From Patescibacteria group bacterium (GTDB lineage: Bacteria; Patescibacteriota; Microgenomatia; UBA1400; PJMF01): a DNA stretch of 64,000 nucleotides. How positions within the stretch are numbered: position 1 is the first letter of the stretch; every line of letters starts with the position of its first letter. A program made the position numbers and the translations under genes. The DNA is taken from contig JAZQJV010000018.1 in the NCBI GenBank assembly GCA_045541795.1, forward strand, positions 118,236 through 182,235, read 5' to 3'. The notes beneath the pieces are model-generated. The model searched no databases. It was given only the letters and a program-made list of their open reading frames with translations, and had not been told where the DNA came from. This document shows positions 4,365-50,781 of the stretch, one piece after another.

Positions 4365-4423
4365 ATTGAAGTACGCAAATTATATCCATATAAAAACGAT
4401 ATTTTAAGCAAATTATTTGGTAT

Positions 4424-5590: not shown

Positions 5591-5608
5591 GGTGGCTTTC
5601 AATCAAAA

Positions 5609-9148: not shown

Positions 9149-9490
9149 ATGCCATCTACCAAAAGTTACCTTAATCACCTTCTAACTCAATTCTCGCAGT
9201 TGGATGATATTTCTTACCGCTCGATGATGGGGGAGTATATCATTTATTTCAAAGGCAAAGTAGTAGGTGGAATTTATGATGATCGATTTTTGGTCAAGAC
9301 AACAAAATCTGCACTCGCGTTGATGCCAAACACAAGCAAAGAATTACCATATCCCGGTGCGAAAGAAATGTTGTTGGTAGACGATACGGGAGACAAAGTA
9401 TTTTTACGCGAGCTGCTGACCGCGATATATGAGGAGCTGTCAGTGGTAAAGAAAAAAGAAAGCACATTAAAACGTTTATTAACGAATTGA
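9149..9490 (+). CDS. TfoX N-terminal domain protein
   Basis: L..L..L..ISYRSMMGEYIIYFKGKVVGGIYDDRFLVK fits the TfoX_N pattern. Confidence 0.65.
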   Translation: MPSTKSYLNHLLTQFSQLDDISYRSMMGEYIIYFKGKVVGGIYDDRFLVKTTKSALALMPNTSKELPYPGAKEMLLVDDTGDKVFLRELLTAIYEELSVVKKKESTLKRLLTN

Positions 9491-11833: not shown

Positions 11834-12024
11834 ATTTTCTCCTGGTGTCGCGTTTCGGGTTTGTACCTAGGTAATTCCAATTTCCTTTTCGCATTTTTTA
11901 TGGTATAATCACGCATCTTACTCACTTTCACGGTCAGATCATCACGGTTTTGCTCGTGGAGGCGGGTGAAATCAGATCTTTGACAAGTGAAGTGAAATCA
12001 TACATCCTTAAAGGAGGAATTTCC

Positions 12025-14049
12025 ATGAAGTTGAAGTTTTGGGTTTTGAGTTTGGCAGCAGTGTTGTGTTTCCCCGCTCTTGCGTCTGGTGCGAGCATCG
12101 AACAGATCTTGGCTAGCATGAGTACTAGCGATAAGATCTGTCAGCTCCTGATCCCAGCCTACCGCAAGACGGCCAGTAATGACGCCACTGTCTTAAGCAG
12201 CGACGCGGCGGCACTCATCAGTCAGTATCCTTTTGGTGGTTTTATCGTTTACGGCGAAAATCTTGTCGACAATGACGCCGGCGTCCGGTTCATCCATGAC
12301 GTCCAACGTGCTAATATCAGCGCTGATACCGGCCGGCCGCAATTGCTCGTAATGACCGATCAGGAAGGAGGCCTAGTCTATAGGCTTACTCACGGCACAA
12401 GCGGCATCTCGCCGATGGCTATGGGTGCGGCTAGAGACAGCACTGCCACTCAGACGATCGCCAAAATCCTAGGCACTGAAGTGTCGGCCCTCGGCATTAA
12501 TTGTAACCTCGCTCCAGTACTCGACGTCGTCACCAATCCGCGCGGTTATATCGGCCTGCGGGGTTTCGGCATTGATCCGCAGCTGGTAGCCGATCAAGCC
12601 AGTAGCTATCTGCGCGGCCTGCGGGAGGCGGGTGTCCTAGGGGCAGTCAAACATTTCCCCGGCACAGGCAGCGCTCAGGAAAACACAGATGGGGCCAATT
12701 TGCCCGTCGTCATTAGTAAGACCCTTGAAGAGCTAGAGTCTTGCGATCTCATTCCTTTCCGCCAGGTGATCAAGCAGGGCCTGGTAGACATCGTGATGGT
12801 TTGCAATGACAGTTTTTCAAGTATAGAAACGCGCCAATTTACCGGCTCTGACGGCCAGCAATATGCCCTCCCTGCTTCAGTTTCCCCGGCGATTATCAAT
12901 GACCTGCTGCGCTGTGGGCTCGGCTTTGACGGCCTGGTGCTCACTGATGCACTCTTGGGCACAGTCATGGCCGCACAGTTTAGTGCCGTGCAAGTCTTAG
13001 AGTTGGCTTTGCAGGCAGGCGCCGACATGATGCCGTACGCTTTAGACCTCAACTCAGTCGCGAGTGTGGCGGCATTCCAGCAGGCCCTGGAGACTTTCAC
13101 TGCACGGGTGGACGCGGATCAACAATTGCAAGGTCTACTAGACACTGCTGTCAGGAGGATTTTGACGTTTAAAAGTCGCCATGAACTCCTGACTCCGTAT
13201 GCTCGCTCAGATTCTTGGGCGGCTAGTCAGGCACAGACGGTACTCCAGAATGTCAGCAACCAGGCTCATCACGACCTCCAGTGGCCGGTTGCTTTGAGTG
13301 CGGTCACGCTGGTGGAAAACCGTAATCAGGCTTTGCCGCTTAGCGGTGATGAGAGAGTGGCCATCCTCTATTATTACGCTAGTCAGGAAGCATCAGTGCA
13401 ACTTGCTCTTGACCGGCTTGTAGCTGACGGTCAGCTGACAAGCAGCCAGGCGGCAGACGTCCTTAATCTAGACGTCCACGACGAAAACTTAAGCGAACTG
13501 CTCACCGGCGTGGACACCGTAGTCATTTTAAGCTCTGTCTATTATGAATCGGAGTTGAGCCCAGATTCTCCCTCTCCTTACAGCGACGAAATCAGTATCG
13601 TGCTGCCACTCCTGTCAGAACTCGCTGGTCGTGGAGTCAAAATCATTCACGCCAGTTGTCATCTTCCTTACGACATCGGGCTGTATCTGGGGCGAGTGGA
13701 TGCCATCCTGGCTTGCTATTTGGCCAACGGGATCTCCCTTCCTATCACCACACCAGATAATCAGCCTCGTTACGGCGTTATGGTACCGGCACTCGTTTAC
13801 AAGCTTTTTGATCAGCGGGGAGATTTTTCCGCCCGACTGCCCGTAGACATTTACACTATTAATGGCGGGCAGTATCAGCTAGACGATGTCCTTTTGTCTC
13901 GCGGCTGGGGTCTGACACTGGCTGGTGACGTCATCACTGATCCGGTAGCGACTCACCAGAGCTCTAGCGGCGGCTGTAATGCTTTGTCGGGATTGTGGCT
14001 GTGGACGGGCATTCTTGTTTTCGCCTCTAGCAAAAAGTACCACTGCTGA
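12025..14049 (+). CDS. glycoside hydrolase family 3 (NagZ-like beta-hexosaminidase/glucosidase), secreted
   Basis: MTDQEGG and KHFPGTGS motifs. AAGGAGG lies 7 nt before the ATG at 12025 and a signal peptide MKLKFWVLSLAAVLCFPALASGA follows. The track start at 11950 is probably an upstream extension. Confidence 0.8.
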   Translation: MKLKFWVLSLAAVLCFPALASGASIEQILASMSTSDKICQLLIPAYRKTASNDATVLSSDAAALISQYPFGGFIVYGENLVDNDAGVRFIHDVQRANISADTGRPQLLVMTDQEGGLVYRLTHGTSGISPMAMGAARDSTATQTIAKILGTEVSALGINCNLAPVLDVVTNPRGYIGLRGFGIDPQLVADQASSYLRGLREAGVLGAVKHFPGTGSAQENTDGANLPVVISKTLEELESCDLIPFRQVIKQGLVDIVMVCNDSFSSIETRQFTGSDGQQYALPASVSPAIINDLLRCGLGFDGLVLTDALLGTVMAAQFSAVQVLELALQAGADMMPYALDLNSVASVAAFQQALETFTARVDADQQLQGLLDTAVRRILTFKSRHELLTPYARSDSWAASQAQTVLQNVSNQAHHDLQWPVALSAVTLVENRNQALPLSGDERVAILYYYASQEASVQLALDRLVADGQLTSSQAADVLNLDVHDENLSELLTGVDTVVILSSVYYESELSPDSPSPYSDEISIVLPLLSELAGRGVKIIHASCHLPYDIGLYLGRVDAILACYLANGISLPITTPDNQPRYGVMVPALVYKLFDQRGDFSARLPVDIYTINGGQYQLDDVLLSRGWGLTLAGDVITDPVATHQSSSGGCNALSGLWLWTGILVFASSKKYHC

Positions 14050-14125: not shown

Positions 14126-15724
14126 CTATTTGGCCCCAAGTTTAGCTTCACTAGTGGCTGGTTTTTGCTCCCACAAAATAAACTCTTCTCCCCGCTGCAG
14201 GATTTGATAATTACTCAGCAATGCTGCCGGGAAAAAATAACCTTCATCATCTATCGTATAAGCAGCATACTCATATTCGGGAGCGTATTCATGCTGCATC
14301 TCACTGCTACCGTAGCGTGTTACTATCAGGTCTGGTGTCCGCTTGGCTATCATTTCGATGATCTCACTAAATACTTCTGGCGCCCCGGCGCGTGATAGTG
14401 TTGGCACCATGTAGTAACGCCCAGCATTGACAGCATTTGTCCCGTGGAAAAACGTATACCAACTATACGGATACAAAGCCAAAAGTTTTGGCGCGGGCGC
14501 ATAGCTCATGATGGCCGTCATGACATCTTGTTTTTCGGCGTAGATAAAATCCCTCGTGCTCTGGTAATTACGACTCAAAACAGCTGCTGTCGCCAGCACG
14601 CAGATCACACTATAAGCGGCAAATTCTGGCAAGTGAGGTTGCAAAATTTTCTCGTCCAATACCAATATTAGCATCAGCGCCAAAATCCCCATCACCCAAA
14701 ACCAATCATAAAAATGCCCGAAAACACCGTTAAAAACGATCCCGCCAACCAACAATGAGATCAGCAACACTTTAAACTGTACCGGGCACTTTTTCAAAGT
14801 TAAAAATAGCACGCTCACGAGTAAGTACACGAGCGACCAGGTGTGATTGGCTGGCAAATTCCACATCAAAGCCAATTGCTCCATGATTTTGAGGATTTTA
14901 GCCACCAAACTACCACCGGCTTGATTACCATAAGCACGAAAGGGAAGAAGAAAATAATGATAAATCAAATCAGCCCAAGCTCCATGAACGGTATACCAGG
15001 CAGCAACCAACAAACACACGCCCAAAAAACCGCCACCAAAGCCGGCCCAGAGCCTTATTTGGTCGCCCGCGCGCCGCTTAGAAATCCAGCCTAGGTAACC
15101 CAGTGTCACCAAAAAAATCCCAATATCTGTGTACTTACACCAAAAAACAACTCCAGCTAGCAAGCCCAAAATGACACTAGCTACCAATTTAGACTTGCTA
15201 GGCAATTTGGTCCAGTTTTGCGCCAGGAGCACACATCCCAAAGTGCATGTTAAAAGCAAACTCCCGATCGAACCCAAAGCGGGTGCAATCGGCTGTGGCG
15301 GTAGACCTAGATATACCAATACTGTGGCTAAAAGCGCCAGAACCAGCCGATATTTTTCTTGTACCCGCACTGACACTAAAATTTGGTGCAGCAAAAAGAA
15401 ATTGACTAAAGCGAGACTGCATTGCACCAAAAACATCCCCCGGAAGACATCACCAGGGTAAAGCAGACCTATAAGACCCCACCAATACATCCATATCGGG
15501 CCTTTCATGTCAAAAAAGTCCCGGTGTGGGAGCTCTCCACGCCGGATAAAATCACTATAAGTAGCGTAAATGCCAAAATCATCACCCAGACCAAAAACTG
15601 ACTGCAACGGCGAGAAAGGACTGGCAAGCGTCACCACGCCTAAAATAGCAAAGCAAGTAATGAAAATACCGAAACACAGCCGAAATTTTGTGTTTTCTTG
15701 CCAATAAGTAATTAGTTTGTGCAT
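14126..15724 (-). CDS. polytopic membrane protein, probable GT-C fold glycosyltransferase
   Basis: More than 10 predicted TM stretches, with an acidic loop DDFGIYATYSDF after TM1. The start is moved to the ATG at 15724 (MHKLITYW), 7 nt after TGaTATAAT on the minus strand. Confidence 0.5.
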   Translation of the reverse strand: MHKLITYWQENTKFRLCFGIFITCFAILGVVTLASPFSPLQSVFGLGDDFGIYATYSDFIRRGELPHRDFFDMKGPIWMYWWGLIGLLYPGDVFRGMFLVQCSLALVNFFLLHQILVSVRVQEKYRLVLALLATVLVYLGLPPQPIAPALGSIGSLLLTCTLGCVLLAQNWTKLPSKSKLVASVILGLLAGVVFWCKYTDIGIFLVTLGYLGWISKRRAGDQIRLWAGFGGGFLGVCLLVAAWYTVHGAWADLIYHYFLLPFRAYGNQAGGSLVAKILKIMEQLALMWNLPANHTWSLVYLLVSVLFLTLKKCPVQFKVLLISLLVGGIVFNGVFGHFYDWFWVMGILALMLILVLDEKILQPHLPEFAAYSVICVLATAAVLSRNYQSTRDFIYAEKQDVMTAIMSYAPAPKLLALYPYSWYTFFHGTNAVNAGRYYMVPTLSRAGAPEVFSEIIEMIAKRTPDLIVTRYGSSEMQHEYAPEYEYAAYTIDDEGYFFPAALLSNYQILQRGEEFILWEQKPATSEAKLGAK

Positions 15725-15817
15725 ATTTGCTATTATATCATACCAAGTATTCTTCACGCTTAGCAATTAGCGCTCGCTTCAAACTACCCAAGATAGTCGC
15801 TTTCGCCCGGTTGGGTC

Positions 15818-20389: not shown

Positions 20390-22195
20390 ATGCAGTTTAG
20401 TAAATTAAGCCAGACGCTACTTGACATCGAAGCAATCAACGCGCGCTTGCAAATCACTCAGATTTTATCAAAACTCTGGCCGCAGCTGGACGAGCGTGAA
20501 TTATGGCAAGCTGCCAACCTTATCCAGGGACAATTACAACCGCCCTATGAACAGCTTGTTTTTAGTCTGTCCGTGAAAATGATCGCCCGCGCTCTGGTGC
20601 AGCTGGCGCTCGCCAATGGTGGCTTGGCTGGCGGCGTAAGTGTGGATTTATTTGGGCAAGCTGATGAACAGTCACTTACTGATCAAATTAAAGCGATACA
20701 TCGCCGTTTTGGTGACTGGGGCGAGACGGCAGCGTCAGTGCACACCGAGCTTTTTGGTGCAAAAGGCTCTAATTTGAGCATTAATGATGTGTATACCAGA
20801 CTGACCGCGATTGCCAAGATCAGTGGCGACGGTTCACAACAGGCTAAGCTTGATGCCTTGGTCTCTTTACTGTCTGCAATTGATGCCTCGAGTGCTAAAT
20901 TTGTGATCAGGATGGTGATCGGCAAACTGCGTTTGGGTTTTTCTACGATGACGATTTTAGACAGCCTTTCGTGGGCGGTTTGCGGTGATAAATCCGAAAG
21001 CAAACTGCTAGAAAGCGCCTGGCAAAAAAAAGCTGATGTTGGCTTACTGGCGGCCGCCTACTTGCCACTGCAAAACCTCACGCCGCTCAAGCGCCGGGAA
21101 AAATTAGCTGCAGACTATCACGCGAGCGTGGGCGTACCTTTAGTGCCGGCTTTGTGCCAACGGCTCAATTCTACCACTGACATCATCGAAAAGGTGGGCG
21201 CTACCATCGCTGAGCCTAAATATGATGGCATGCGCATCCAAATTCACGTCCGCCGTCAGGGTGGGCTGCAAGTTTTTGCTTTCACCAGGAGTTTGGAAAA
21301 TGTTTCTCACATGTTTCCAGAGCTACAAGAATTTGCCAGTAGCCTCGATGTGGATGCCGCCATTTTTGACTCAGAAGCTGTGGGCTTTAATGCTCACACC
21401 GGGCAGATGTTGCCTTTCCAAGAGACCATTAGTCGGCGTCGGCTTCACGACGTCGATCAAAAAGCTCAGTCCATCAAAATGAAATTTTTCATTTTTGACG
21501 TTTTACTTTTAAATGAGCAGGAACTCATCACGACGCCCTTGGCTGAGCGCAAAAAACTACTGCGCCAAACAGTTGCCGATAGCGACGTCGCGCAGGTGAC
21601 GAGTTTTATCGTCACTAGTGATCCCGGACAGCTGCGCCAGTTCCATGAACGCCAGCTCCAGCTTGGTCTGGAGGGGATGGTGGCCAAAGGGGAGAGCAGT
21701 GATTATCAAAGCGGCCGCAAAGGCTGGCACTGGGTCAAGATTAAAGAAGCAGAAGGTACTCGTGGCAAGCTCAATGACACCCTTGATTTAGTAGTCATGG
21801 GTTATTATTATGGTCAGGGCCGGCGGCATGATATGGGCGTGGGAGCGATTCTTACAGGCGTGTTGGCAGATAATGGTGATATTGTCACGATCAGCAAAAT
21901 CGGCACCGGCTTTACTGATGAAAATCTTTCTTCCTTCCACTCTCAAGCAGAAAATTACCGTACAGATACCAAGCCCACCGACTACCAAGTAGGCAAGCAG
22001 CTGATACCGGATGTGTGGTTGAGGCCGCACCTAGTAGCCGAAATTGCTGCTGACGAGCTTACTCGCTCTACCATGCATACAAGCGGCTACGGCCTCCGTT
22101 TCCCCCGCATTATCCGGTGGCGAGACGATAAAACCGCTGCTCAAGCTACCACCCGCAGCGAGCTGGCATCCATTACTATAGATAAAGGAGATTAA
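20390..22195 (+). CDS. lig: ATP-dependent DNA ligase (Lig1/archaeal-type three-domain architecture)
   Basis: Adenylation motif AEPKYDGMRIQIH (KxDG), then FDSEAV, EGMVAK and WVKIK motifs. The ~230-aa N-terminal region is consistent with a DNA-binding domain. Confidence 0.85.
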   Translation: MQFSKLSQTLLDIEAINARLQITQILSKLWPQLDERELWQAANLIQGQLQPPYEQLVFSLSVKMIARALVQLALANGGLAGGVSVDLFGQADEQSLTDQIKAIHRRFGDWGETAASVHTELFGAKGSNLSINDVYTRLTAIAKISGDGSQQAKLDALVSLLSAIDASSAKFVIRMVIGKLRLGFSTMTILDSLSWAVCGDKSESKLLESAWQKKADVGLLAAAYLPLQNLTPLKRREKLAADYHASVGVPLVPALCQRLNSTTDIIEKVGATIAEPKYDGMRIQIHVRRQGGLQVFAFTRSLENVSHMFPELQEFASSLDVDAAIFDSEAVGFNAHTGQMLPFQETISRRRLHDVDQKAQSIKMKFFIFDVLLLNEQELITTPLAERKKLLRQTVADSDVAQVTSFIVTSDPGQLRQFHERQLQLGLEGMVAKGESSDYQSGRKGWHWVKIKEAEGTRGKLNDTLDLVVMGYYYGQGRRHDMGVGAILTGVLADNGDIVTISKIGTGFTDENLSSFHSQAENYRTDTKPTDYQVGKQLIPDVWLRPHLVAEIAADELTRSTMHTSGYGLRFPRIIRWRDDKTAAQATTRSELASITIDKGD

Positions 22196-28250: not shown

Positions 28251-28631
28251 TTACATCCCATCTACCAATGTGGGGACACTGATGCCACTAGCATCTGTGC
28301 CGAAGGCCACCGTCAGGACGAGCTGGAAAACGGCCCAGGTGCATGCCAACACTAAAATACCGATAATGGCGGCTAAAATCTGATTACGGGCGTCTTCGAC
28401 TTTACCCTTATCGCCGCCAGAAGCGATCCAGTGAATGGCGCCCATGATGAGGTGATAAAGAGTTAGTAAAGCCGCTACCATGATAGTGAGCGTAAACACG
28501 TTATGCAAAAGCGAGCCAGCACTGGGGTTGATTTTCAGACCGCCGACGCCATTGGGATCGAGATCGTTGAGATTAAAAACCCCCGCCGAAAACAGCGGAA
28601 TACTTGCCAGTTGACCGTACTTTTTATTCAT
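28251..28631 (-). CDS. small TrbC/VirB2-like (CPR T4SS-pilin-type) membrane protein, paralog 1
   Basis: Two hydrophobic helices flank an I.SGGD.GK.E.A...I loop (HWIASGGDKGKVEDARNQILAAIIGILVL). Same architecture as 40090-40563. Confidence 0.55.
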   Translation of the reverse strand: MNKKYGQLASIPLFSAGVFNLNDLDPNGVGGLKINPSAGSLLHNVFTLTIMVAALLTLYHLIMGAIHWIASGGDKGKVEDARNQILAAIIGILVLACTWAVFQLVLTVAFGTDASGISVPTLVDGM

Positions 28632-28655: not shown

Positions 28656-28684
28656 ATTATATACCCATTTGATCATTTTGTCAA
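28656..28684 (-). promoter_or_regulatory. consensus promoter of the pilin-like gene
   Basis: On the minus strand: TTGACA (28684-28679), 17-nt spacer, TATAAT (28661-28656). Confidence 0.6.
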
Positions 28685-28880: not shown

Positions 28881-29546
28881 ATGCAAAAAATTTGGCAAGC
28901 AATTGGTGATTTTTTGGTAGGGTTGATCTATCCACCTTTTTGCGTACGTTGCGGGCAAATCGGCACTCTTTTTTGCGATCGCTGCTATACTCATCTCAAT
29001 TTCATCACCACCAAAAACCTAGTGCCATCACTTTTTCGTGACGAAAAAAACCCGGTGTATCTGGAAAATGTGACAGCCCTGTGCGTCTACGACGCTGTAC
29101 TGAAAAAAGTTTTACATCAATACAAATACGGCGGCGTGCGCGATCTTTTCCGGTCATTGGCTTACTGGCTTTATGAATTTACATCCTGGGACGCAGACAT
29201 TATCACTTACATTCCCATTCATAAAAAAAGGAAAGTGGAGCGCGGCTATAATCAAGCCCAACTTCTAGCACAGGAATTGTCGCGCTTGTCCGGCATTCCT
29301 TGCGTCAGCCTGCTCGCTCGTCCCGTCTACAAACAAAAGCAAGCCTTAAGCAAAAATAAAGCCGAGCGTCTTGCCAAAACTAAAAACATTTTTGCCGCCC
29401 GCGAAAATGACCTCGATCGTCGTCTTAGAGTTCTAATAATTGATGACGTAGTCACTTCTGGCGCTACTCTCAATGAAGCGGCGCGGATTCTGCATGATGC
29501 CGGTTTCCAGCACATCCAAGCCTTGGCAGTAGCGCATGGAGATTGA
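28881..29546 (+). CDS. comFC: ComF family phosphoribosyltransferase-domain protein
   Basis: N-terminal Cys4 (CVRCG...CDRC), YKYGG, RGYNQA and LIIDDVVTSGATLNEAA. Confidence 0.85.
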   Translation: MQKIWQAIGDFLVGLIYPPFCVRCGQIGTLFCDRCYTHLNFITTKNLVPSLFRDEKNPVYLENVTALCVYDAVLKKVLHQYKYGGVRDLFRSLAYWLYEFTSWDADIITYIPIHKKRKVERGYNQAQLLAQELSRLSGIPCVSLLARPVYKQKQALSKNKAERLAKTKNIFAARENDLDRRLRVLIIDDVVTSGATLNEAARILHDAGFQHIQALAVAHGD

Positions 29547-34472: not shown

Positions 34473-35684
34473 ATGAACGGGAAAATAGTGCCGGTGTTTT
34501 TGGCGGCAGTTTTACTTCTCCCCTTATGGAGGGGAGATAGGCATACCACAGGTACAGCCAGAGGGGAGGTGCAAGCAGCCAGTAGTGCCACCACCAAAAA
34601 ACTCAAAGACGTGGCGCTTGGTGAGGTTATCCAAATTGGTGTTACTAAGTACGTCAAGATCGCTGCCAATAGCTATCAGGCGGTAAAGCCGTATACCTGT
34701 GCTGACCCAGTACTCACTTATGCCGGTGCTAGCAAAAGTTTCACTTATACGGGGAACTATCAGACATTTACGGCATATGCTGGGTGCCAGTACCAGGTGG
34801 AGCTGTGGGGTGCACAGGGCAATGACAACGGTTCAGTACTTGGCGGCAGAGGCAGTTACACTGCCGGATTATTTACGCCAGACGGCACAAGCTCACTTTA
34901 CGTTTATGTCGGCCAACATCAACAGTCAGTGCTAGCAGCTTCCTTTAATTGCGGTTCTACCGGCCCCTTAAATCACGGCGGCGATGCTGTTGGCTACGGG
35001 GGCGGCGGTGCTACAGATATTCGCACCGTAAGCGGAACTTGGGATAATGAAAACTCACTGCGTTCCCGGATCATTGTCGCCGCCGGCGGTGGTGGCAGTA
35101 AAATCTGGGGCGGTTGTAATTCAGTCGGATCTCAAGAAGGGATTTTTGCTGGCGGTATTAGCGGCTATACTGGTCCAGGCTCTGGTTACGCACCCAATGC
35201 TTGCGTCGCCGGGACTGGCGGTACTCAAGTGGCTGGTGGCAGTGCCTCTACGTGTACTGGTAATGGTGGCACCAGAGCGAGTGCGGGCAGCTTTGGTAAA
35301 GGCGGCAATCCTGGCAGTACATATAGCGCCGGTGGTGGCGGCGGCTGGTATGGTGGGGGCGGCGGCACTGCTAGTCACTGTTATATTGCCTGCGGCGGTT
35401 CTGGTTCCTCTTACATCTCCGGCCACACTGGCTGCGTCGGCGTCACTTCACTAAGCGACACTACTCCCAAATCCGGCTGCACCACCGGTACGACTAATAA
35501 TGCCTGTTCGCTTAGCCCTACTGGTCTGAGCTTCACTGACACCGTGATGATTGACGGTGCTGGTTATTCCTGGACAAATGTAAAAGGATCACTTCAACAA
35601 ATGCCCAATCCTGCCGGCGGTTACTACGCGAGCGGCGTGGGTCATACCGGCAATGGTGCCGCCCGTATCACCCGCCTTAATTAA
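34473..35684 (+). CDS. secreted glycine-rich domain protein (Gly_rich family, ALK/LTK GRD-like)
   Basis: FTYTGNYQTFTAYAGCQYQVELWGAQG...GGRGSYTAG...LYVYVGQ...GYGGGGATDIRT...RIIVAAGGGGS...GGGGGWYGGGGG. It has an N-terminal hydrophobic signal or anchor. Confidence 0.7.
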   Translation: MNGKIVPVFLAAVLLLPLWRGDRHTTGTARGEVQAASSATTKKLKDVALGEVIQIGVTKYVKIAANSYQAVKPYTCADPVLTYAGASKSFTYTGNYQTFTAYAGCQYQVELWGAQGNDNGSVLGGRGSYTAGLFTPDGTSSLYVYVGQHQQSVLAASFNCGSTGPLNHGGDAVGYGGGGATDIRTVSGTWDNENSLRSRIIVAAGGGGSKIWGGCNSVGSQEGIFAGGISGYTGPGSGYAPNACVAGTGGTQVAGGSASTCTGNGGTRASAGSFGKGGNPGSTYSAGGGGGWYGGGGGTASHCYIACGGSGSSYISGHTGCVGVTSLSDTTPKSGCTTGTTNNACSLSPTGLSFTDTVMIDGAGYSWTNVKGSLQQMPNPAGGYYASGVGHTGNGAARITRLN

Positions 35685-40029: not shown

Positions 40030-40058
40030 ATTATATCACAAAAACTGCTTCTTGTCAA
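40030..40058 (-). promoter_or_regulatory. consensus promoter of nusA-infB
   Basis: On the minus strand: TTGACA (40058-40053), 17-nt spacer, TGaTATAAT (-10 at 40035-40030). Confidence 0.6.
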
Positions 40059-40079
40059 GGGCTAATTTTGGTGTATAAT
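40052..40079 (+). promoter_or_regulatory. promoter of the pilin-like/giant-protein operon; its -35 overlaps the nusA -35 on the other strand
   Basis: TTGTCA at 40052-40057, 16-nt spacer, TATAAT at 40074-40079. Confidence 0.5.
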
Positions 40080-40089
40080 TGGGGAACTT

Positions 40090-40563
40090 ATGAAAAAATG
40101 GAGTGTGATCGCAGTTTTAATTTTGAGCCTGTTTGCGGGACGGCCAGCACATGCTGCCCCTTACGAAAGTTGGAAGAGTTCCAAAATGTGCACAGGCGCT
40201 AAAGACACGCTTTCTGAAGACGTTGCCACTATCGCTGGTATCGTTTGCCTGATCGCCAATGCCTTAAATGCCGTCCTGACGCTGTTTTCCTTCGTCGGCT
40301 TCCTCATGTTTGTGTATGCCAGTTTTATGCTCATGATCTCTGGCGGTAATCCCAGCGGCTTTGAAACAGCGAAAAATACCTTTACTTACGCAATTTTTGG
40401 CTTCGTGCTGGCTTTATCATCATTTGTGATCATCAATCTTATTTCTTATTACACTGGCCTCAATAGCTTCTTTGTCATCAAATTCTTGCCCAATACTATT
40501 TCTGGCAGCGCCAGCAGTGGCGGTACAGGCGGTAGCGGTACGGGAGGTACAAGCGGGCCATAA
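40090..40563 (+). CDS. small TrbC/VirB2-like (CPR T4SS-pilin-type) membrane protein, paralog 2, with a Gly/Ser/Thr-rich tail
   Basis: Signal peptide MKKWSVIAVLILSLFAGRPAHA, then two TM helices flanking MISGGNPSGFETAKNTF, and the tail GSASSGGTGGSGTGGTSGP. Confidence 0.6.
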   Translation: MKKWSVIAVLILSLFAGRPAHAAPYESWKSSKMCTGAKDTLSEDVATIAGIVCLIANALNAVLTLFSFVGFLMFVYASFMLMISGGNPSGFETAKNTFTYAIFGFVLALSSFVIINLISYYTGLNSFFVIKFLPNTISGSASSGGTGGSGTGGTSGP

Positions 40564-40564
40564 T

Positions 40565-43500
40565 ATGCGCATTGATAAATTCTTACCGGCAAAACGTTGG
40601 CAAACTGTTATCATTGGGGTCAGTTTGGTTTTTGGCTGCATGATGTCGCTGCAAAATTTGCACCTAGACCTAGTTTCTGACGTCTGGAGTGCGCAGTATC
40701 AGGATGTTTATAGTCAAGTGATGAGTATTTTCCAGTCACGAGGTGAGACCATCCCTACTAATGTCGCCGCCGACATCATCGAGCGTTCTGGCGGTGATCA
40801 AAATCAAGCTATAGCTACTCTGGAAAAGTATCTCAACGTCTACAAAGCTTTGCAAGCGCGTAATCCTGATGTCTCTTCTCTAGTCATCAGTTTGATCGCC
40901 AAACAGTACCCAGATAATTACTCACAGGCCAGCACAGCTTTGTCGCAGACGGTCTCGACAGCTAAGCAGATCCAGGACTACCAAAATATAAATACTATTG
41001 CGGCGCAAATTGTGGCCGCTTTAGGGATTAATAATAGTTTCACGCAGACACTCTCAGACGCTTATGACGTCGTCAATAATGCCAGTAATATGGGCCAGCA
41101 GATGAACGTCAACAATATCGCCGCTCAAATTTTGTCTGCGCTCGATCTTACCGGAGAACTATCCTCGGGTTTTGGCAGCCAGGCTGATTTGCAAAATACG
41201 CTTCAAAGCATGACTAGATCGTCCCTCTTGCAAAGTCAAGACGCTAAGGATGTCCTCGGTGCCTTAGACATTTTCACGCCGGGTAATTTCTCGTCTGATG
41301 CCGGCAGCGTGAGTAAAATTGCCAGTGATCTTTTAGGCGGAAAACTTTCAGACACGGTCAAAAGTGTGGTAGATAAAGAAATTGCCGAAAGTTTGGGCGC
41401 GCTTAATCTAGGTAGTTTGTCTGGTCTTAGCGAAGGTAAAGGGAATTTTTCTGGCATTCTTGAGCAGGTGACATCTAAAACTGCCGGTGAAGCTGGCAAA
41501 TACAAGGATGTCTACGAAACCGTCACCAAAGGTATGAGCACTCAGGACATCGTCAAAATGGGCACCGACAAAATCAAAGACAGTATCTTAGATAATTCTA
41601 CCCTCGACCAGGAAAAAGCCGCTCAGGAAACCAAAAAAGAACTTGACCAAGAGGCAAAAAAAGCCGTAGACGAGGAAAAAAAACTACAGGATGAAGGATT
41701 GATTGATCCGTCGAGCGTACCAAGCAGTAGCCCTTCGCCTTCTTCAACTCCCGATCCTTCAGCCAGTCCTTCACCATCACCTTCCGCAAGTCCTTCTCCT
41801 GGTGCCAGCCCGTCGCCAGGGGCGAGCCCGAGTCCCTCTCCGTCTGCTAGTCCGTCACCGAGCGCTTCGCCGTCGCCGTCAGCGTCACCGAAAGCAACTG
41901 AATACATCAGAAGTGGTGCACAGGGATCCTTTATCACCGCTATCATAGATAAACTCAGAATGAGCGGCACGGCCGAAAATATTAAGGAAGGTTTTGCTGC
42001 TAAAATGATCGCCAAGAATTTATCGCTGGAGGGATATGAAGCCTATCATATCAAAACTGTCAGCCGTTTGCAGCCCTATATGAATTTTTCTCATCGCCGT
42101 AACAATGTAGATTTTAGCCAAGCCAAAGTACCCCTCATGCGCAATAGTAACTACAAACCTGAACGGCTTAATTCTGCCGAAAATTATTACGGCTATAATG
42201 CCCGGGTAGGAGTGAATGACACTGATATCCTTACTGAGTCAGCCTGGGTCGCCAAAATGTCGCAGCCTGTCAAATGCAGCCTCAAAGCCGCCAATCTTGC
42301 CTATATCGTGCGCACTTGCGACATTCTTCATGAAGACACATGCGAAGGTCTATACCTGACCGCTGATGGCAGTGAAACCATCAAAGATACTAAGATCAAA
42401 GTCCATGATTTGGCTCTTGCGGTGACAGCCATTCTCATCACTGATGGCAGCCAACGTGACGAGTTAATCAATGCGGTGGCGCTCGCTTTGGCGACGGGCA
42501 AAGGCGATCTTAGCGGCATCATGGGACAAGTAACCAATATTATTAATAGTATTGGCGGTGAGAATTCAGATGTACTGTCGCGTTTGCTGGCTATGGCTTC
42601 AGATAAAGTCATGGAACCTATCTATGATAACCGGATTCCTTTTTGTGAGACACTTTATAATACTCCAGCCACAGCGGCTACGGATGAGACGGGCTTACTG
42701 CTAGAAATGGCCAAAGGCAACATCCAAGCGGAGGATATGGGCAAAATTTATCTGCGCTGGGCGATGGAAAAATTGGACTTTTACCTGGCACGTGAATACC
42801 GCACTGCATACCTAGTGCAAACTACAAGAATCTGCCCGGTACGTCGGCAATTTATCTGCTCTAAATCCTCACCCGTATATAAGTATGCACCAGCACCCAC
42901 AGGCACCTGCTTAGTACAACTCCCCTGTATACCTGGTATCACCCCAGATCAGGTGCGTGTATATCCATTCAAAATCCCAGATCTTTTCACCAATAAGAAT
43001 TTTTGCAAAACGTCTGATCTAGAATATCCTGGGCTCTTGAATGACGTCAAATGTGAGCCCTCTGAGCAATTCCAATATGCAGACATGATACAAGAATATC
43101 ACGATCCGGCACTTTTACAAAAAAATTTCCTCATGAATATGGAGCAGATCCGCGCTGAACGTGAAGAGTTTTTAGCAAAACGCAAAACTCGCGCCCAGCA
43201 CTCTGCCGAAGCCTGTACGGCCAATAGTGCTACCACTCTTGCCAAAATGCAAGAGGCCGACTTAACATGCACCGACAAAAATGTGCTTAGCGGTGATCTG
43301 ATTGACTGTGAAAACTGCAATGGCGAAGCCAGACGAGTCAAAGCGGCTCTAGTGAAAGTCATCAACGGTGCCATCAAACATGGCGAACTTTACAAAATCG
43401 AAAATCCCAACGGCAACTCGCCGGGTACTGATGATGTCAGCGGCGGGCTTAGTAGTTCCGCCATTACCACTTCTGCCGTGAATCCGCTCGAACCAGCTAT

Positions 43501-44137
43501 CACTGATGTCAACTATTTTAATGATTTCTGCTTATGTCGGGAAAAAATGTTCCTTTGGGTCCCGTGGTTTGCCTACGCTAAACTTGATTACTTTGTCGTC
43601 GAGCCGATCAGTGATGAGGTGGAAAGTATTGAGGAGCACATTGTCTCGCCGTTTTTCCGCACTAGTCAATACCAGCAATTCCTCAAAAATGACAGCCGTC
43701 AAAATCGTAAAATCCAAGTCACTGGCGCCAAGAGTAACCTGAGTGACATCCCGATTTGGCTGCCTGCTGGCGGGCCGATCAGTAATGTCTTTTTGCAGCA
43801 GCAAGTTTTATACAATCAAGATCAAGACATTTATAAGAACTTTAAAAAATGCGTTTCCGCCGCCTCATATTTTGAGTCACAGTGCATGGGTGCGGATAGC
43901 GGCAAAGAGGATGAGGCTTTTGACGAGGCTAAAAGTCAGTGCATATTGCGTGCGGAAGCTGGCTGTACTCGTGGCTGTGGCGAGAACGGAGTGATTTCGC
44001 TTACCTATGGTAGCGAGGACGGTAAGACTATTATTGACTGTGAATGCGGCAATACTGGCGGTGAAGACAGTAGCGGGCCAAGAAATTATCATTATGAATG
44101 TGAAAATTCCACCGATACTGAATGGGATGACGTCTAA
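40565..44137 (+). CDS. 1190-aa N-terminally anchored surface protein: degenerate helical repeats, coiled coil, Pro/Ser linker, large Cys-rich C-terminal region; function unknown
   Basis: The ATG at 40565 lies 1 nt after the pilin-like TAA (MRIDKFLPAKRWQTVIIGVSLVFGCMM). The track ORF extends upstream in the same frame across the pilin 3' end. Confidence 0.75.
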   Translation: MRIDKFLPAKRWQTVIIGVSLVFGCMMSLQNLHLDLVSDVWSAQYQDVYSQVMSIFQSRGETIPTNVAADIIERSGGDQNQAIATLEKYLNVYKALQARNPDVSSLVISLIAKQYPDNYSQASTALSQTVSTAKQIQDYQNINTIAAQIVAALGINNSFTQTLSDAYDVVNNASNMGQQMNVNNIAAQILSALDLTGELSSGFGSQADLQNTLQSMTRSSLLQSQDAKDVLGALDIFTPGNFSSDAGSVSKIASDLLGGKLSDTVKSVVDKEIAESLGALNLGSLSGLSEGKGNFSGILEQVTSKTAGEAGKYKDVYETVTKGMSTQDIVKMGTDKIKDSILDNSTLDQEKAAQETKKELDQEAKKAVDEEKKLQDEGLIDPSSVPSSSPSPSSTPDPSASPSPSPSASPSPGASPSPGASPSPSPSASPSPSASPSPSASPKATEYIRSGAQGSFITAIIDKLRMSGTAENIKEGFAAKMIAKNLSLEGYEAYHIKTVSRLQPYMNFSHRRNNVDFSQAKVPLMRNSNYKPERLNSAENYYGYNARVGVNDTDILTESAWVAKMSQPVKCSLKAANLAYIVRTCDILHEDTCEGLYLTADGSETIKDTKIKVHDLALAVTAILITDGSQRDELINAVALALATGKGDLSGIMGQVTNIINSIGGENSDVLSRLLAMASDKVMEPIYDNRIPFCETLYNTPATAATDETGLLLEMAKGNIQAEDMGKIYLRWAMEKLDFYLAREYRTAYLVQTTRICPVRRQFICSKSSPVYKYAPAPTGTCLVQLPCIPGITPDQVRVYPFKIPDLFTNKNFCKTSDLEYPGLLNDVKCEPSEQFQYADMIQEYHDPALLQKNFLMNMEQIRAEREEFLAKRKTRAQHSAEACTANSATTLAKMQEADLTCTDKNVLSGDLIDCENCNGEARRVKAALVKVINGAIKHGELYKIENPNGNSPGTDDVSGGLSSSAITTSAVNPLEPAITDVNYFNDFCLCREKMFLWVPWFAYAKLDYFVVEPISDEVESIEEHIVSPFFRTSQYQQFLKNDSRQNRKIQVTGAKSNLSDIPIWLPAGGPISNVFLQQQVLYNQDQDIYKNFKKCVSAASYFESQCMGADSGKEDEAFDEAKSQCILRAEAGCTRGCGENGVISLTYGSEDGKTIIDCECGNTGGEDSSGPRNYHYECENSTDTEWDDV
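41708..41890 (+). repeat. low-complexity (A/G)SPSPS coding repeat (Pro/Ser linker)
   Basis: It encodes PSSVPSSSPSPSSTPDPSASPSPSPSASPSPGASPSPGASPSPSPSASPSPSASPSPSASP. Confidence 0.8.
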
Positions 44138-45725
44138 ATGGCGCCAACTTCAATCTTGGCGCTGCTGGCTGCCATACCTGGTTTTGGCACTAGCGATGGC
44201 GATCGCCATCGCCCTCAAAAAGGATTATTACATTGATGAAATTTACAGCTATGGTCTCGCCAATAGTCTGACGCCGCAAATAGATATTAGCAATCCTGGT
44301 ATTTTCCGGCCGGCTTGGTCAGTGTTTCGCCCGTACGTGACCGCTTCCTGGTGGCACGTGCTTGATTTACCTTCTGTGTGGCAAAATCAGGCCGCTGATG
44401 TCCATCCTCCATTTTACTATTTGTTGCTGCATGTGGTTTCCTCACTTGCGCCAGGTATTTTCTCGCGTGGCTTTGCGGGCTTGATTAATATCATTTCTGC
44501 TCTAGTGTGCCTTTATTTTGTGGGGAGTATCTTGCGTCGTCTGGAAGTCAGCCCAGCTGCTCGGCATTGGATCAGCCTGTGTCTCTCGCTCCATCCAGCC
44601 ATCATTGGCGCTGGTAGCTTTTTGCGGATGTACTTGTTGCTGTCAGCACTCCTTTTGGCCATTACTGATCAAACGCTTGCCCTCATCCAAAATCCTGTGT
44701 CAATCAAATCCTGGTATCGCACTCCGCTTACGTGGCTTGTCACCGCCGCTTGCCTTACCCATTACTATGCATACGTCTATCTGATTGGACTTGTCGGTGC
44801 CGCTCTCATTTTGTTTTGGCGGCGTGGTCAAAAACAAGCCTGTCGCCATTTGTTGGCTTGTGCCGTTGCTGGCGTCGCCAGCGCCTTAATACTATTCCCG
44901 TATGCGCTGCGCCATGTATTTTTTGCTGACCGCGGGACTCAGTCATGGAGCAACTTTTTGCAGCTGTCTGCCTTTCGCGCGCGTTTAGATCTTTATACGA
45001 ATTTGCTCAATAGACAGCTTTTTGGCGGTTTTGGCTGGTTGCTTATTGGTATGATCGGTATTGCTTTGGCGGTTTATCTTTGGCAAGGAAGACGCCGGCT
45101 CCAAGCGAGTGTAAATAAACTTGGTCTTTGGCTGGTGGTGACGGCGCCAGCGTGTGCTTACCTGATTCTTGTTGGTATTTCTTCAGTCTTTACTGTGGAC
45201 CGGTACATGCAGCCGCTGTATTTCCCCGTTATCACCATTGTGTACGGCAGTTTGGCACTACTAATTTGGCGCCATGCGCCTTCTCGTTGGCGATCAGGAC
45301 TATTAATAGCAGTACTCAGCGTGTGTACTGTTTTTTCTTGGCGCGTACAAGAATGGCCCTATCTTTATTGGGAGAGAGAGCAAGAAATTGCCAGAGCACG
45401 CGCTCACGAGGGCTTAGATTGCCTCTTCCTGTATCAAGATCGTTGGACCGCTCTTTACTATTTTGAGGAATTGCGTCATTACCGTTCTGTCACCTTTATC
45501 CCTGTAGAGGCCAATGACCGCATCCGTTATTATATGGAAGTCATCAAGCACGCCCATATAGATGAATTAGTAGTCGCTTTTGGTTTGGGTGATGACGATC
45601 CTCGTGAACCAGAAGCAGTTCTTAATAAATTCCTTGATATATCGGGATTTTTAGAGTACAAGCAAACAATTTGGCAGCATAGCCCCAAATCAGCAAGTTA
45701 TCTAGTGGGCAGTAAAGTCGACTGA
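44127..45725 (+). CDS. GT-C fold membrane glycosyltransferase (ArnT/PMT, GT39/83-like)
   Basis: A DE-containing first loop (KKDYYIDEIYSYGLANS) and more than 10 TM segments. The ATG at 44127 overlaps the end of the preceding gene. Confidence 0.6.
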   Translation: MTSKWRQLQSWRCWLPYLVLALAMAIAIALKKDYYIDEIYSYGLANSLTPQIDISNPGIFRPAWSVFRPYVTASWWHVLDLPSVWQNQAADVHPPFYYLLLHVVSSLAPGIFSRGFAGLINIISALVCLYFVGSILRRLEVSPAARHWISLCLSLHPAIIGAGSFLRMYLLLSALLLAITDQTLALIQNPVSIKSWYRTPLTWLVTAACLTHYYAYVYLIGLVGAALILFWRRGQKQACRHLLACAVAGVASALILFPYALRHVFFADRGTQSWSNFLQLSAFRARLDLYTNLLNRQLFGGFGWLLIGMIGIALAVYLWQGRRRLQASVNKLGLWLVVTAPACAYLILVGISSVFTVDRYMQPLYFPVITIVYGSLALLIWRHAPSRWRSGLLIAVLSVCTVFSWRVQEWPYLYWEREQEIARARAHEGLDCLFLYQDRWTALYYFEELRHYRSVTFIPVEANDRIRYYMEVIKHAHIDELVVAFGLGDDDPREPEAVLNKFLDISGFLEYKQTIWQHSPKSASYLVGSKVD

Positions 45726-47348
45726 TTATTTTAGCCGCCACACTTGTAGTGTTGGCGCATCTGCCTGTGGTCGCTCATACTCCTGTACCAATGCGACGGG
45801 CTTGATGTCCTCATCCAAATCCAGCCGGTGCGAATTAGCGACCAGTAAGACCTCGTCATATTCATCCCAGTTTGGCTGGGGAGAAAGTTTATCAAAATTG
45901 TGTATCGGCGGCGCACCCAAACCTAGGACTTTGATGTTGTCACGCACACTACTTTTCCATAAATATATCTGCAAACCGTCGGGTAATGTCCCCACAAAAC
46001 CTTCAGTAAGAACCAACAGCTTCTTACTCGCCGCCAACTCTTGTAAATATTCGGCCGTTTGCTTGATCCCATGTCCGGAAGACCAGTCCCAAAATAATTG
46101 CTGTCTGTCGGCTGGCAGTAGCGGCAGTTTAAATGGATTGGTATGAATCCGCCAGCTCCAATAATGGCCAGTAACTAATACAATTAAAATTAACGCGAGT
46201 TTAAAATTTATCAATTCAATCCGACGAATCAGGGATAAGCACACCACAAAGCTGACGATAATAAACGGTACCACCGGTAGAAAATAACGCGGGTAGACGA
46301 CTTTACCCAGCATGATGATAGGCAAAGCATAGGCGAATCCTGAGATTAAAATCAAAAGCGGTAACGCTGTCCGTGAACGCCGGCGACAAACATAAATCAA
46401 AGCCATACACAAAGTAGTGACAGTCATCGTGAGTCCAGTATAATTTGTAATTACGCGGGCAAAGTTGAGCACATTGTAAGTTAAAATCGCAAACGGTTGA
46501 CGCAAAAAGTCACCCACGCTATATAAAAAGTCACCACCGCGACTAAATAGCATCGGGAATGCGGGGCTGATTTTTAAGACAGCAAAAATTATCACTCCGA
46601 TCGCACTAATGACAAAAAGTGGCATTAACTGCGAGGCAAGCGAGCGCCAAAAACTTTCTCGGTTTTGTTTGTTTTTTATCTTTGACCACTGCGCGTGGTA
46701 AAACGGCACAGTGGCTAAAACTGGCGCCAACAAAAGACAGGAAAACTTTGTCCACATCGCCAGTCCCCACGAGGTGCCAGCAGCCAGCGTCCACCAGTAC
46801 CAACTGTTTTTGTCCTTGTCTCGGCTCAAATATGCGCCAGTCGCTTGATAAGTAAGGATGAACGTGAGACTGATGAAAAAAGACACGGCGCTGTCCATCA
46901 GTGCCAAACGATTAGTCAGCATTAATCCAGGCGAGAAAATTACCAGCAACCCTGCTAAAAGTTGATAACGCCTTTTATGGACGAAAACTTTGACCATATA
47001 AATCGTCACGAGCAATTGACCCAGACCAAAAAGAATCGCCGCCACCCGTCCTGCCACCAGCGGATCGGCAAAAATTTTGATCAAAGGTATCGCCGTCCAA
47101 ATGACCAGCGGCGTTTTACCATCATTGAGAGCAAAAAAACTATACTGCTGCCAATCAGAAATAGCCAGCTGCGACCAATAAATATAAATTGCTTCATCCA
47201 CAAAAACAGGGATGGATTGCAGTTTGGCCAGCCGCTGCCAACAAAAGATTACAATGATTATTCCTAAAAGATAATAGTACCAATACCGAGCTAAATGAAT
47301 GCTAGCCTTGAGCGTTTTTTTCAATTTTGTATACCAATCCCACCACAT
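45726..47348 (-). CDS. GT-C fold membrane glycosyltransferase (ArnT/PMT, GT39/83-like)
   Basis: First loop PVFVDEAIYIYWSQ; polytopic. On the minus strand TATAAT lies 7 nt before the ATG. Its stop codon abuts the stop of the convergent gene. Confidence 0.6.
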   Translation of the reverse strand: MWWDWYTKLKKTLKASIHLARYWYYYLLGIIIVIFCWQRLAKLQSIPVFVDEAIYIYWSQLAISDWQQYSFFALNDGKTPLVIWTAIPLIKIFADPLVAGRVAAILFGLGQLLVTIYMVKVFVHKRRYQLLAGLLVIFSPGLMLTNRLALMDSAVSFFISLTFILTYQATGAYLSRDKDKNSWYWWTLAAGTSWGLAMWTKFSCLLLAPVLATVPFYHAQWSKIKNKQNRESFWRSLASQLMPLFVISAIGVIIFAVLKISPAFPMLFSRGGDFLYSVGDFLRQPFAILTYNVLNFARVITNYTGLTMTVTTLCMALIYVCRRRSRTALPLLILISGFAYALPIIMLGKVVYPRYFLPVVPFIIVSFVVCLSLIRRIELINFKLALILIVLVTGHYWSWRIHTNPFKLPLLPADRQQLFWDWSSGHGIKQTAEYLQELAASKKLLVLTEGFVGTLPDGLQIYLWKSSVRDNIKVLGLGAPPIHNFDKLSPQPNWDEYDEVLLVANSHRLDLDEDIKPVALVQEYERPQADAPTLQVWRLK

Positions 47349-50089: not shown

Positions 50090-50280
50090 ATTGGCAAATA
50101 TACACACAATTCTTTCAAATTCTTTCATCTTTTTACCGCAAAATATGCGGTAATAACCAATTTACCTGCGTTCACCAGCAATATTCATCAGTCAAAATCT
50201 ATCATAATTTGCTACCACCACCTGCAAAAAATACCAATATAACAGCACATTTTTCTCTTATAATGACTAAAAGTGACGGC

Positions 50281-50314
50281 GGGAAAAATTTCGACCTTAG
50301 TCGAAATTTTTCCC
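50281..50314. promoter_or_regulatory. perfect 15-bp inverted repeat (operator or stable hairpin) in a divergent intergenic region
   Basis: gggaaaaatttcgac-ctta-gtcgaaatttttccc, verified base by base. A TATAAT lies at 50259-50264 upstream. Confidence 0.5.
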
Positions 50315-50370
50315 CAAACCCCTCACTAAATTGCCCCGCCAACTTCAAGAATTTGTGCTATAATAACCTC

Positions 50371-50781
50371 ATGATTACAAAATTCATTCGCAATTATATA
50401 ATTATTGTCCTGGCTTTATTTGTCACTGACTGGCTGATGAATAACATCTCTTTCGGCTATCCCACCGGCAAAAATTTTTCATTTGCTGTTTTTTGGGACG
50501 GCTTGCCCGTGCTTTTGGTCACCGCACTCGTGCTCACATTACTTTCATTGATCGCCAAGCCTATTCTCAAAATTCTTTCTGCGCCCATTAATTTTGTCAC
50601 TCTCGGCCTATTTAATGTCGTTATTGATGTCCTGATTTTTTGGCTGACGGCATATTTGGTGTCTGGCTTTAGCATTGGTGAGCTCTCACTCGGGCAGATT
50701 CACCTCGGCGCCTTCTTTTCGTATGCCGCAGTTTCTCTCGTTTTTGGCTTTTTACAGGGGCTTTTGGCTTTGATTTTGTGA
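50371..50781 (+). CDS. YvlD/Phage_holin_4_2 family membrane protein
   Basis: LIAKPILKILSAPINFVTLGLFNVVIDVLIFWLTAYLVSGFSI fits the family pattern. TGcTATAAT lies 6 nt before the ATG at 50371. The track ORF start at 50035 runs through intergenic signals. Confidence 0.65.
   Translation: MITKFIRNYIIIVLALFVTDWLMNNISFGYPTGKNFSFAVFWDGLPVLLVTALVLTLLSLIAKPILKILSAPINFVTLGLFNVVIDVLIFWLTAYLVSGFSIGELSLGQIHLGAFFSYAAVSLVFGFLQGLLALIL

Follow-up and report, generated by a model that had tools for sequence, protein, structure and literature searches.

What are two small pilin-type genes doing in a stretch of genome that carries no recognisable core gene of a type IV secretion system (T4SS)? That question is raised by 64,000 nucleotides (nt) of a Patescibacteria group bacterium (contig JAZQJV010000018.1, positions 118,236 to 182,235); this whole stretch is hereafter called the window. 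The two genes, here named P1 (28251-28631, minus strand) and P2 (40090-40563, plus strand), encode proteins of 126 and 157 amino acids (aa) and lie 11.5 kb apart on opposite strands. An earlier note on this DNA had described them as two dispersed TrbC/VirB2-like genes, and both open reading frames (ORFs) are present at these coordinates and on these strands. Our explanation, which as a whole we place just on the probable side, is that P1 and P2 are working genes, that each encodes a different paralogue of PF18895, a family specific to Patescibacteria, that both derive from ordered gene arrays of the kind found in relatives, P1 as a relocated cassette, and that their products contribute to a filament or conduit.

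Two Paralogues of the PF18895 Family

The PF18895 (T4SS_pilin) model, a search with which the earlier note had recommended, scored P1 at 28.4 bits, above the gathering threshold of 26.6, and P2 at 26.0 bits, 0.6 below it. A database protein identical to P2 (P0032) carries a precomputed PF18895 assignment, as do seven of eight other P2 homologues, and the database copies of P1 and P2 lie on one NCBI contig with the assignment on both. The two proteins thus belong to the pilin-type family of the Candidate Phyla Radiation (CPR)/Patescibacteria, as had been proposed, and they are its only members in the window.

P1 and P2 are also homologous to each other. They aligned over the hairpin in BLASTP (E 7e-5), and hidden Markov models (HMMs) built from the homologues of each protein recovered the other (P1-family HMM to P2, E 7.7e-10; P2-family HMM to P1, E 1.6e-4), with no other ORF of the window better than E 0.7. 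Comparison of the two family alignments by hhalign gave a probability of 94.5% (E 8e-8, 76 columns).

The common two-helix hairpin architecture was borne out by this homology, by hydropathy and, for P1, by an AlphaFold model. The hydrophobic segments of P1 span residues ~40-69 and 81-112; in the model, helices 38-70 and 75-110 (pLDDT, the predicted local distance difference test, ~80-90) are joined by a 4-residue SGGD turn, and the N-terminal 31 residues are disordered. P2 begins with a classical signal peptide (MKKWSVIAVLILSLFAGRPAHA, ending in RPAHA and followed by AP), continues with an N-terminal extension that holds two cysteines and with the hairpin, and ends in a tail rich in Gly and Ser; its hydrophobic segments, besides the signal peptide, lie at ~44-86 and 97-121. 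The loop region is common to both (P1, WIASGGDKGKVEDARNQ; P2, LMISGGNPSGFETAKNT), and the shared motif given in the earlier note is essentially right, except that the 'G' before the 'E' is K in P1. Across 20 P1 homologues the motif SGGDK..E.ARNQI is invariant. Comparison with orthologues gave pN values (nonsynonymous differences per site) of ~0.19-0.23 against pS values (synonymous) of 0.73-0.90 for the two genes, with synonymous sites saturated, indicating that P1 and P2 are real genes under purifying selection.

Ordered Arrays in Related Genomes

A P1-family alignment was scanned against one genome per GTDB species, which yielded 339 confirmed places. The best 80 were kept as loci, so that every array among them holds a P1-type gene by construction. 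The genome of the window is not one of the scanned representatives, among which the best match was 72% identical. Because ORFs were called crudely as the longest ORF, the intergenic gaps reported below are minimum estimates. Where informative, the locus titles named Woese-, Collier- or Pacebacteria (the last placed in the phylum Minisyncoccota), Microgenomates or 'Patescibacteria group', with Vitreimonas sp. as the one exception.

Most loci contain a same-strand tandem array of 5-12 pilin-like genes, and in 55 of those scanned a large ORF, mostly of 700-1440 aa, lies within 500 nt of the last array gene. We refer to the product of this ORF as the giant and number array positions from it, position 1 being the gene that adjoins it. 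The best matches of array members in other arrays fell overwhelmingly at the same distance from the giant, giving a strongly diagonal position table. By this measure, array members are positional orthologues. HMMs built for eight array positions each matched exactly P1 and P2 in the 64 kb, with E below 1e-10.

P2 corresponds to position 1. The best match of the P2-family HMM was the gene adjoining the giant in 43 of 46 arrays, the top 30 BLAST matches of P2 were all position-1 genes, and P2 scored 116.7 bits with the position-1 HMM, none of the others giving more than 59 bits. P2 and the position-1 genes also share the N-terminal extension with its two cysteines. The way in which the loci were selected has no bearing on this result. 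The best P1-family match lay second or third from the giant in 42 of the 46 arrays, making P1 an orthologue of position 2/3. In the window the two genes occupy neither a tandem array nor a T4SS-adjacent site, locations known for PF18895 genes, and P2 keeps its array-terminal giant partner. The description of the genes as dispersed needs refining, as P2 is not a stray gene. On these matches, we regard P2 as standing in its canonical place, last in the array and before the giant, and P1 as a relocated cassette for what may be the major subunit. In the closest relatives of this genome, the members found are of type 1 or 2/3, with one of type 8, and occur in groups of one to three on several contigs, implying that the split and reduced layout is a trait of the lineage.

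Three further observations concern the arrays themselves. A 564-aa protein with a signal peptide and 7 transmembrane (TM) segments is encoded downstream of the array-giant pair in 43 loci, ~5 kb past the arrays (e.g. L028:16226-17920). It matched no Pfam or NCBIfam model and is absent from the window; the VirB6 analogue that is 'missing' in Microgenomatia, and would be highly divergent, may be this protein. In 25 loci, a 582-aa SpoIID-domain protein is encoded immediately upstream of the arrays (e.g. L017:6212-7960), and one giant homologue, P0046, itself carries a SpoIID domain; cell-wall remodelling enzymes thus appear to be locus-associated. Many metagenome-assembled genome (MAG) records (L006, L007, L010, L014 and others) are titled 'uncultured Pseudomonadales/Gammaproteobacteria bacterium', and one 'Vitreimonas sp.', and carry typical Patescibacterial arrays; these titles look like mislabels from an automated pipeline.

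Expression Signals of P1 and P2

The strong consensus promoters attributed to both genes were found. P1 is monocistronic and is preceded by a perfect sigma-70 promoter (TTGACA-17-TATAAT, 12/12; 28656-28684, minus) whose -10 hexamer ends 25 nt before the ATG, and its orthologues retain promoters of 11-12/12. P2 has an 11/12 promoter (TTGTCA-16-TATAAT; 40052-40079, plus), also conserved in the related locus L004, with its -10 hexamer ending only 10 nt before the ATG, implying a very short or absent leader. This promoter overlaps, back to back, a divergent 12/12 nusA promoter (40058-40030, minus), and the pair surrounds the palindromic CTTGTCAAG. Counting both strands, the whole window has just 11 sites that reach 11/12 or better. 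These promoter and terminator calls are consensus matches only, and sigma-70-like signals are assumed for this phylum. An intrinsic terminator 3' of P1 was not found in the window.

We surveyed the same signals in 44 canonical arrays. Upstream of the P1-type gene the median gap is 62.5 nt, compared with 3 nt for the other members. A sigma-70 match of 10/12 or better stands in the 120 nt upstream of it in 70% of the arrays, the figure for other members being 5%. Position 1 satisfied this promoter threshold in 0-8% of cases and the giants in 7%. In the equally large gap 3' of the P1-type gene, which served as a control, a match of at least 10/12 was present in only 8-13% of arrays. A terminator-like hairpin with a T-run followed the stop codon of the P1-type gene in 55% of cases; other members had one in 2-3% and giants in 7%.

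A strong private promoter and terminator within an operon is a classical route to producing one subunit in large excess, as for the PapA and PilA major pilins. Since the P1-type genes of the arrays have a private promoter and terminator, and P1 itself is monocistronic behind a 12/12 promoter, P1 is, by this analogy, probably the major subunit. P2, which is co-translated with the giant, may be a low-copy terminal or adaptor subunit.

The P2 Operon and the Giant Family

The stop codon of P2 (TAA, 40561-40563) is followed after 1 nt by the ATG of the giant gene (40565-44137, plus), in agreement with the earlier observation that one of the two pilin-type genes is solitary and the other coupled to a giant surface protein. 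The window giant has 1190 aa. Its only TM segment is N-terminal, its linker is rich in Pro and Ser, and its C-terminal region is rich in Cys. The end of its gene is overlapped by 11 nt by a third operon gene (44127-45725, plus), which encodes a 532-aa polytopic membrane protein with ~8 TM segments. This protein has the look of a GT-C glycosyltransferase (DVHPPFYY), although without HMM support, and neither it nor the giant contains any Pfam or NCBIfam domain. Convergent to the operon lies a gene for a PMT-family protein O-mannosyltransferase (45726-47348, minus). The order is the same in L004, where IF-2 and NusA are followed by the pilin, the giant, a 536-aa protein and PMT. The combination of a Pro/Ser linker, a GT-C-like neighbour and a PMT gene suggests that the giant may be O-glycosylated, with the PMT-family enzyme as a candidate for modifying the linker.

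An HMM of 45 array-adjacent giants matched the window giant at ~512-1043 with E 1.6e-18, the next window ORF reaching E 0.59. The search needed the --max option of HMMER, because the Pro/Ser linker led the default bias filter to mask the homology. All of the array-adjacent giants, like the window giant, have a single N-terminal TM segment. On the strength of this profile match, the window giant is a member of an unnamed Patescibacteria family of array-adjacent giants. The family appears small and fast-evolving, with 43 representatives at E<=1e-3 among 1.84 billion proteins. A model of the conserved C-terminal 721 aa, built from a 6-sequence alignment, reached a pLDDT of 39.5 and was too poor for searching. 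In the N-terminal third of the window giant (40565-41760), repeated helical segments ('NINTIAAQIVAALGI / NVNNIAAQILSALDL') stand ahead of the Pro/Ser linker. Conservation with array-adjacent giants of other classes is confined to the C-terminal part and does not extend to this third.

Some relatives of the giant carry additional domains. In 38 giant-family representatives we found SLT_3 (lysozyme-like) in 6, SLT in 4, GH5 cellulase in 4, M23 in 2, 3D, SpoIID and C-type lysozyme in 1 each, and esterases in several. The 46 array-adjacent giants include SLT_3 in 3, SLT in 2 and GH5 in 1, and no such lytic or glycan domain was detected in the window giant. To judge by these fusions, giants may target cell walls or glycans at the site of action of the pilin-like proteins, and this site could be the wall of the organism itself, as with VirB1, or that of a host.

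Relationship to VirB2/TrbC and to Mycoplasma Proteins

Kinship with TrbC/VirB2 was not borne out by sequence. PF04956 (TrbC/VirB2) matched neither P1 nor P2 at E<=1, and hhalign against six bona fide VirB2/TrbC proteins from plasmids of the MPF_T class (MPF, mating pair formation) gave a probability of 0.5% with the P1-family alignment and of 3% with that of the P2 family, in the second case over the signal peptide only. A sequence-profile search of the PDB returned no pilin, its single match being a chance one to a phage tape-measure protein (E 0.94). Fold searches with the P1 hairpin were uninformative for so simple and generic a fold.

The nearest curated model was NF045849 (NCBIfam, Mbov_0395 family 'pilin-like conjugal transfer protein'), which P1 matched at 19.9 bits (E 4.2e-4) and P2 at 17.7 bits (E 2.1e-3), against a cut-off of 40 bits. 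All 20 P1-family members examined matched it at E<=0.01, the best at E 1.8e-7 and every one below the cut-off. The matches of P1, P2 and these 20 members cover nearly the full length of the model (profile positions 10-78 of 80). Such scores suggest distant kinship with NF045849, as the nearest curated relative, rather than membership. In a published phylogeny, Patescibacterial VirB4 stands next to the monoderm MPF_FATA class. The NF045849 match fits this placement and weighs against co-option of the pilins from diderm systems. We regard a monoderm origin of PF18895, suggested by these profile matches, as a lead and not a demonstration.

T4SS Genes Near P1 and P2

A Pfam survey of ~60 ORFs confirmed that VirB4, VirB6 and VirD4 are missing from the window, as the earlier note had stated, and detected no other T4SS family there. 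Among ORFs of at least 300 aa, a Walker A motif was present only in LepA, IF-2 and one YhcG-like protein. HMMs of 16 families that recur near the arrays found a single one of them in the window, an ATP-dependent DNA ligase. A 10-TM protein encoded at 14126-15766 was considered as a VirB6 candidate and rejected, as it did not match the array-associated polytopic family; its motif seems to resemble that of GT-C glycosyltransferases.

Proposed Model and Alternatives

In the model that we favour, the ancestral layout would have been an ordered same-strand array of 5-12 paralogues followed by an N-terminally anchored giant. P2 would have kept its translational coupling to the giant, in an operon that ends with the gene for the polytopic GT-C-like protein. 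The P1-type gene, with its own promoter and terminator, would be a self-contained cassette even inside arrays, and in this lineage would have moved 11.5 kb away. P1 and P2 would be exported and would enter the membrane as hairpins of two helices with an SGG(D/N) turn. A filament or conduit that spans the envelope might be built mainly of the P1 type, which would be abundantly expressed, and the low-copy P2 type, as terminal or adaptor subunit, might join the giant to it. The giant itself would probably be O-glycosylated and, in some relatives, would bring a lytic enzyme domain. The driving force for assembly might come from a T4SS ATPase and translocon of monoderm (MPF_FATA-like) type whose genes lie in another part of the genome. 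The assembled structure might serve host contact.

Several points weigh against this model. Neither sequence-profile nor structural evidence links the PF18895 family to filament-forming VirB2. The leader of P1 is atypical and only weakly hydrophobic and does not amount to a convincing hydrophobic signal peptide, and the giant has no recognisable domain and a poor structural model (pLDDT 39.5). The window holds no VirB4, VirB6 or VirD4, and no recurrent Walker A ATPase occurs within ~10 kb of the arrays in the 80 loci, ~10 kb being the flank visible around each match, so that virB4 may lie just beyond. With no T4SS genes near, the dependence on a T4SS is drawn from the literature on another class, Saccharimonadia. 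The 80 loci were chosen by similarity to P1 and are phylogenetically non-independent. Finally, the view is that of a 64-kb window, and other paralogues or a full array may exist elsewhere in the genome.

The lack of a detectable relation to VirB2/TrbC speaks for a first alternative, in which PF18895 proteins are membrane-resident hairpin subunits of a monoderm T4SS channel, no filament is formed, and 'pilin' is a naming convention. Their only curated match outside the Patescibacteria, NF045849, comes from integrative and conjugative elements (ICEs) of wall-less Mycoplasma and is presumably membrane-resident too, and Gram-positive T4SSs generally lack pili (PMC12102498, PMC10633639). We nevertheless consider this reading unlikely. 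An ordered set of 5-12 paralogues is not expected of a translocon part, and the strong private promoter and terminator of one member imply a large stoichiometric excess. Moreover, the signal peptide and Cys-containing extracellular extension of P2 suggest exposure outside the membrane, and NCBI's own name for NF045849 is 'pilin-like'.

The lack of a linked ATPase gene points to a second alternative, in which the hairpin proteins and the giant, with the 564-aa polytopic protein in relatives, form a T4SS-independent surface module that needs no VirB4. Such a module could be a membrane platform or an export escort that displays the giant as a glycosylated adhesin or lytic protein. Neither the window nor the ~10-kb surroundings of the 80 loci contain a VirB4-like ATPase, no T4SS linkage comes close to the constancy with which pilin and giant adjoin each other, translation of P2 is coupled to that of the giant, and pilin genes are unlinked from virB4 in ~40% of assemblies (PMC12102498). 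The Saccharimonadia array, however, lies inside a T4SS cluster, with both essential (PMC10633639, PMC12857230), and the sub-threshold matches are to Mycoplasma ICE conjugation proteins. The ~10-kb flank is also shorter than the +/-20 coding sequences examined in the literature, so that virB4 may simply fall outside it. Weighing these points, we hold the T4SS-independent module to be improbable.

That P1 and P2 are unrelated small membrane proteins (holin-like or DrpB/TctB-like) or chance ORFs of hydrophobic composition, to which weak Pfam/NCBIfam matches to TctB, DUF2165 and DrpB and the generic hairpin fold might point, is highly improbable and effectively refuted by the conservation data, namely the invariant SGGDK..E.ARNQI motif, reciprocal profile matches, conserved synteny (L001, L004), strong purifying selection and the eight position HMMs that match exactly P1 and P2.

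Within the favoured model, we tentatively put forward a broader and more doubtful proposition. PF18895 arrays may be an ancient, ordered heteromeric kit, composed of a P1-type major subunit, several minor ones and a P2-type giant-coupled adaptor, rather than interchangeable or antigenically variable copies, and may descend from monoderm/Mollicutes 'pilin-like' conjugation proteins rather than from diderm VirB2. If so, this genome would show that the P1 cassette and the adaptor-giant module need no physical linkage in order to function, either between the two or to a T4SS ATPase gene. P1 and P2 themselves are ordinary PF18895 members, and their value lies in the comparison that they prompted. 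That comparison points to a probable major-subunit paralogue and to a paralogue tied to a giant, sometimes with a lytic domain, and suggests that, among curated families, Mycoplasma ICE proteins and not VirB2 stand closest. The lineage offers a naturally 'minimised', split version of the locus, useful for choosing experimental targets.

Neighbouring Genes and Other Content of the Window

P1 is flanked by a divergent ComFC-like gene, followed by dnaG, and by a convergent orphan response regulator. In the close relative L001, a solitary P1 orthologue stands beside the same response-regulator, AMP-binding and ThiF genes. The ComFC-like gene (28881-29546), which encodes a double zinc ribbon and a phosphoribosyltransferase (PRTase) domain, directly adjoins P1, an adjacency not kept in L001. 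Together with a secreted staphylococcal-type nuclease with Excalibur domains (7356-8429) and a TfoX_N protein (9149-9490), the ComFC-like protein forms a theme of DNA uptake or scavenging. The ATP-dependent DNA ligase gene (20390-22195) lies 6 kb from P1. In 8 related loci (e.g. L079:1588-3402; E 3.9e-234), a ligase homologue is encoded upstream of the array at a distance of a few kb, with differing orientation; the proximity of ligase to P1 and to arrays could be remnant synteny or coincidence.

The housekeeping genes of the window comprise a ribosomal protein and rpoA block and genes for IF-1, DnaG, LepA, IF-2, NusA, enolase, iPGM and the ATP-dependent DNA ligase. There are also many glycosyltransferases and one defence-type island of low guanine-plus-cytosine (GC) content (1736-6736; GC 0.34-0.38, against ~0.47 elsewhere), which was probably acquired horizontally. 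In this island, a Schlafen AlbA_2 gene (2846-4273) and the gene of a Shedu SduA homologue (4424-5602, minus) lie between those of two YhcG/DUF1016 PDDEXK nucleases (1736-2824, plus; 5609-6736, minus). A glycoside hydrolase family 3 gene (11950-14049) occupies a 2-kb block with GC of 0.54, well above the window average, and this block may be foreign in origin. The protein encoded at 34473-35684 strongly matches the ALK/LTK glycine-rich domain (PF12810, E 6.6e-34), which is familiar chiefly from receptor kinases of animals and is unusual for a bacterium. At 48254-50781, a gene for a 624-aa secreted protein (minus) with a weak Peptidase_C39_2 match overlaps the 5' end of a Phage_holin_4_2 ORF (50035-50781); the long N-terminal extension of this holin-like ORF is probably a mis-called start.

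Comparison with Known Systems

VirB2-like pilins have been reported, from searches with PF18895 and PF04956, in 1948 VirB4-bearing Patescibacterial assemblies, and lay near virB4 in only 1135 of them (PMC12102498). The same study described 441 arrays of 2-11 pilin genes, abundant in Microgenomatia and Saccharimonadia, and interpreted them as possible variation for host range. As pilin genes are often unlinked from virB4 in the literature, two 'dispersed' genes are not in themselves new. In Southlakia epibionticum, a series of PF18895 pilins within the T4SS cluster is essential (PMC10633639, PMC12857230). The Patescibacterial T4SS and its pilin arrays are essential in the one genetically tractable species, and T4SSs of the Gram-positive type normally lack a pilus. 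The papers that could be searched make no mention of positional orthology, of the constant giant partner or of the private promoter and terminator of the P1-type gene, which may be described elsewhere.

The closest published counterparts are the essential six-gene array of S. epibionticum ML1 and the 'Sec-secreted array' of Nanosynbacter lyticus TM7x, which belong to PF18895 and to the same phylum. They share with P1 and P2 the core of signal, TM1, SGGD turn and TM2, the occurrence of several divergent paralogues per genome, and genes that are frequently unlinked from virB4 (PMC12102498). The window differs from the published arrays in having two members only in 64 kb, with neither a tandem array nor adjacent T4SS genes.

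VirB2/TrbC proteins of the MPF_T class, such as Agrobacterium VirB2, resemble P1 and P2 in small size, a leader peptide and two hydrophobic helices around a short polar loop, and amplification of paralogues is known in Bartonella and Anaplasma. Unlike P1 and P2, the six reference genes are flanked by virB1 and virB3, their systems are diderm whereas the host here is monoderm, and VirB2 lacks the loop motif SGGD..E.A(R/K)N. The NF045849 proteins (Mbov_0395/MMCAP2_0565, Mycoplasma ICEs) share the monoderm, MPF_FATA-type context and differ in that they are encoded in mobile ICEs beside conjugation genes.

The pilin operons of type IV pili and type II secretion systems, with their tip protein PilY1 or PilC, have an unrelated fold and assembly machinery, and no prepilin peptidase motif is present in P1 or P2. 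As a functional analogy, they offer an ordered series of distinct paralogues, one of them strongly expressed under a promoter and terminator of its own and the others co-transcribed with a large tip-associated protein.

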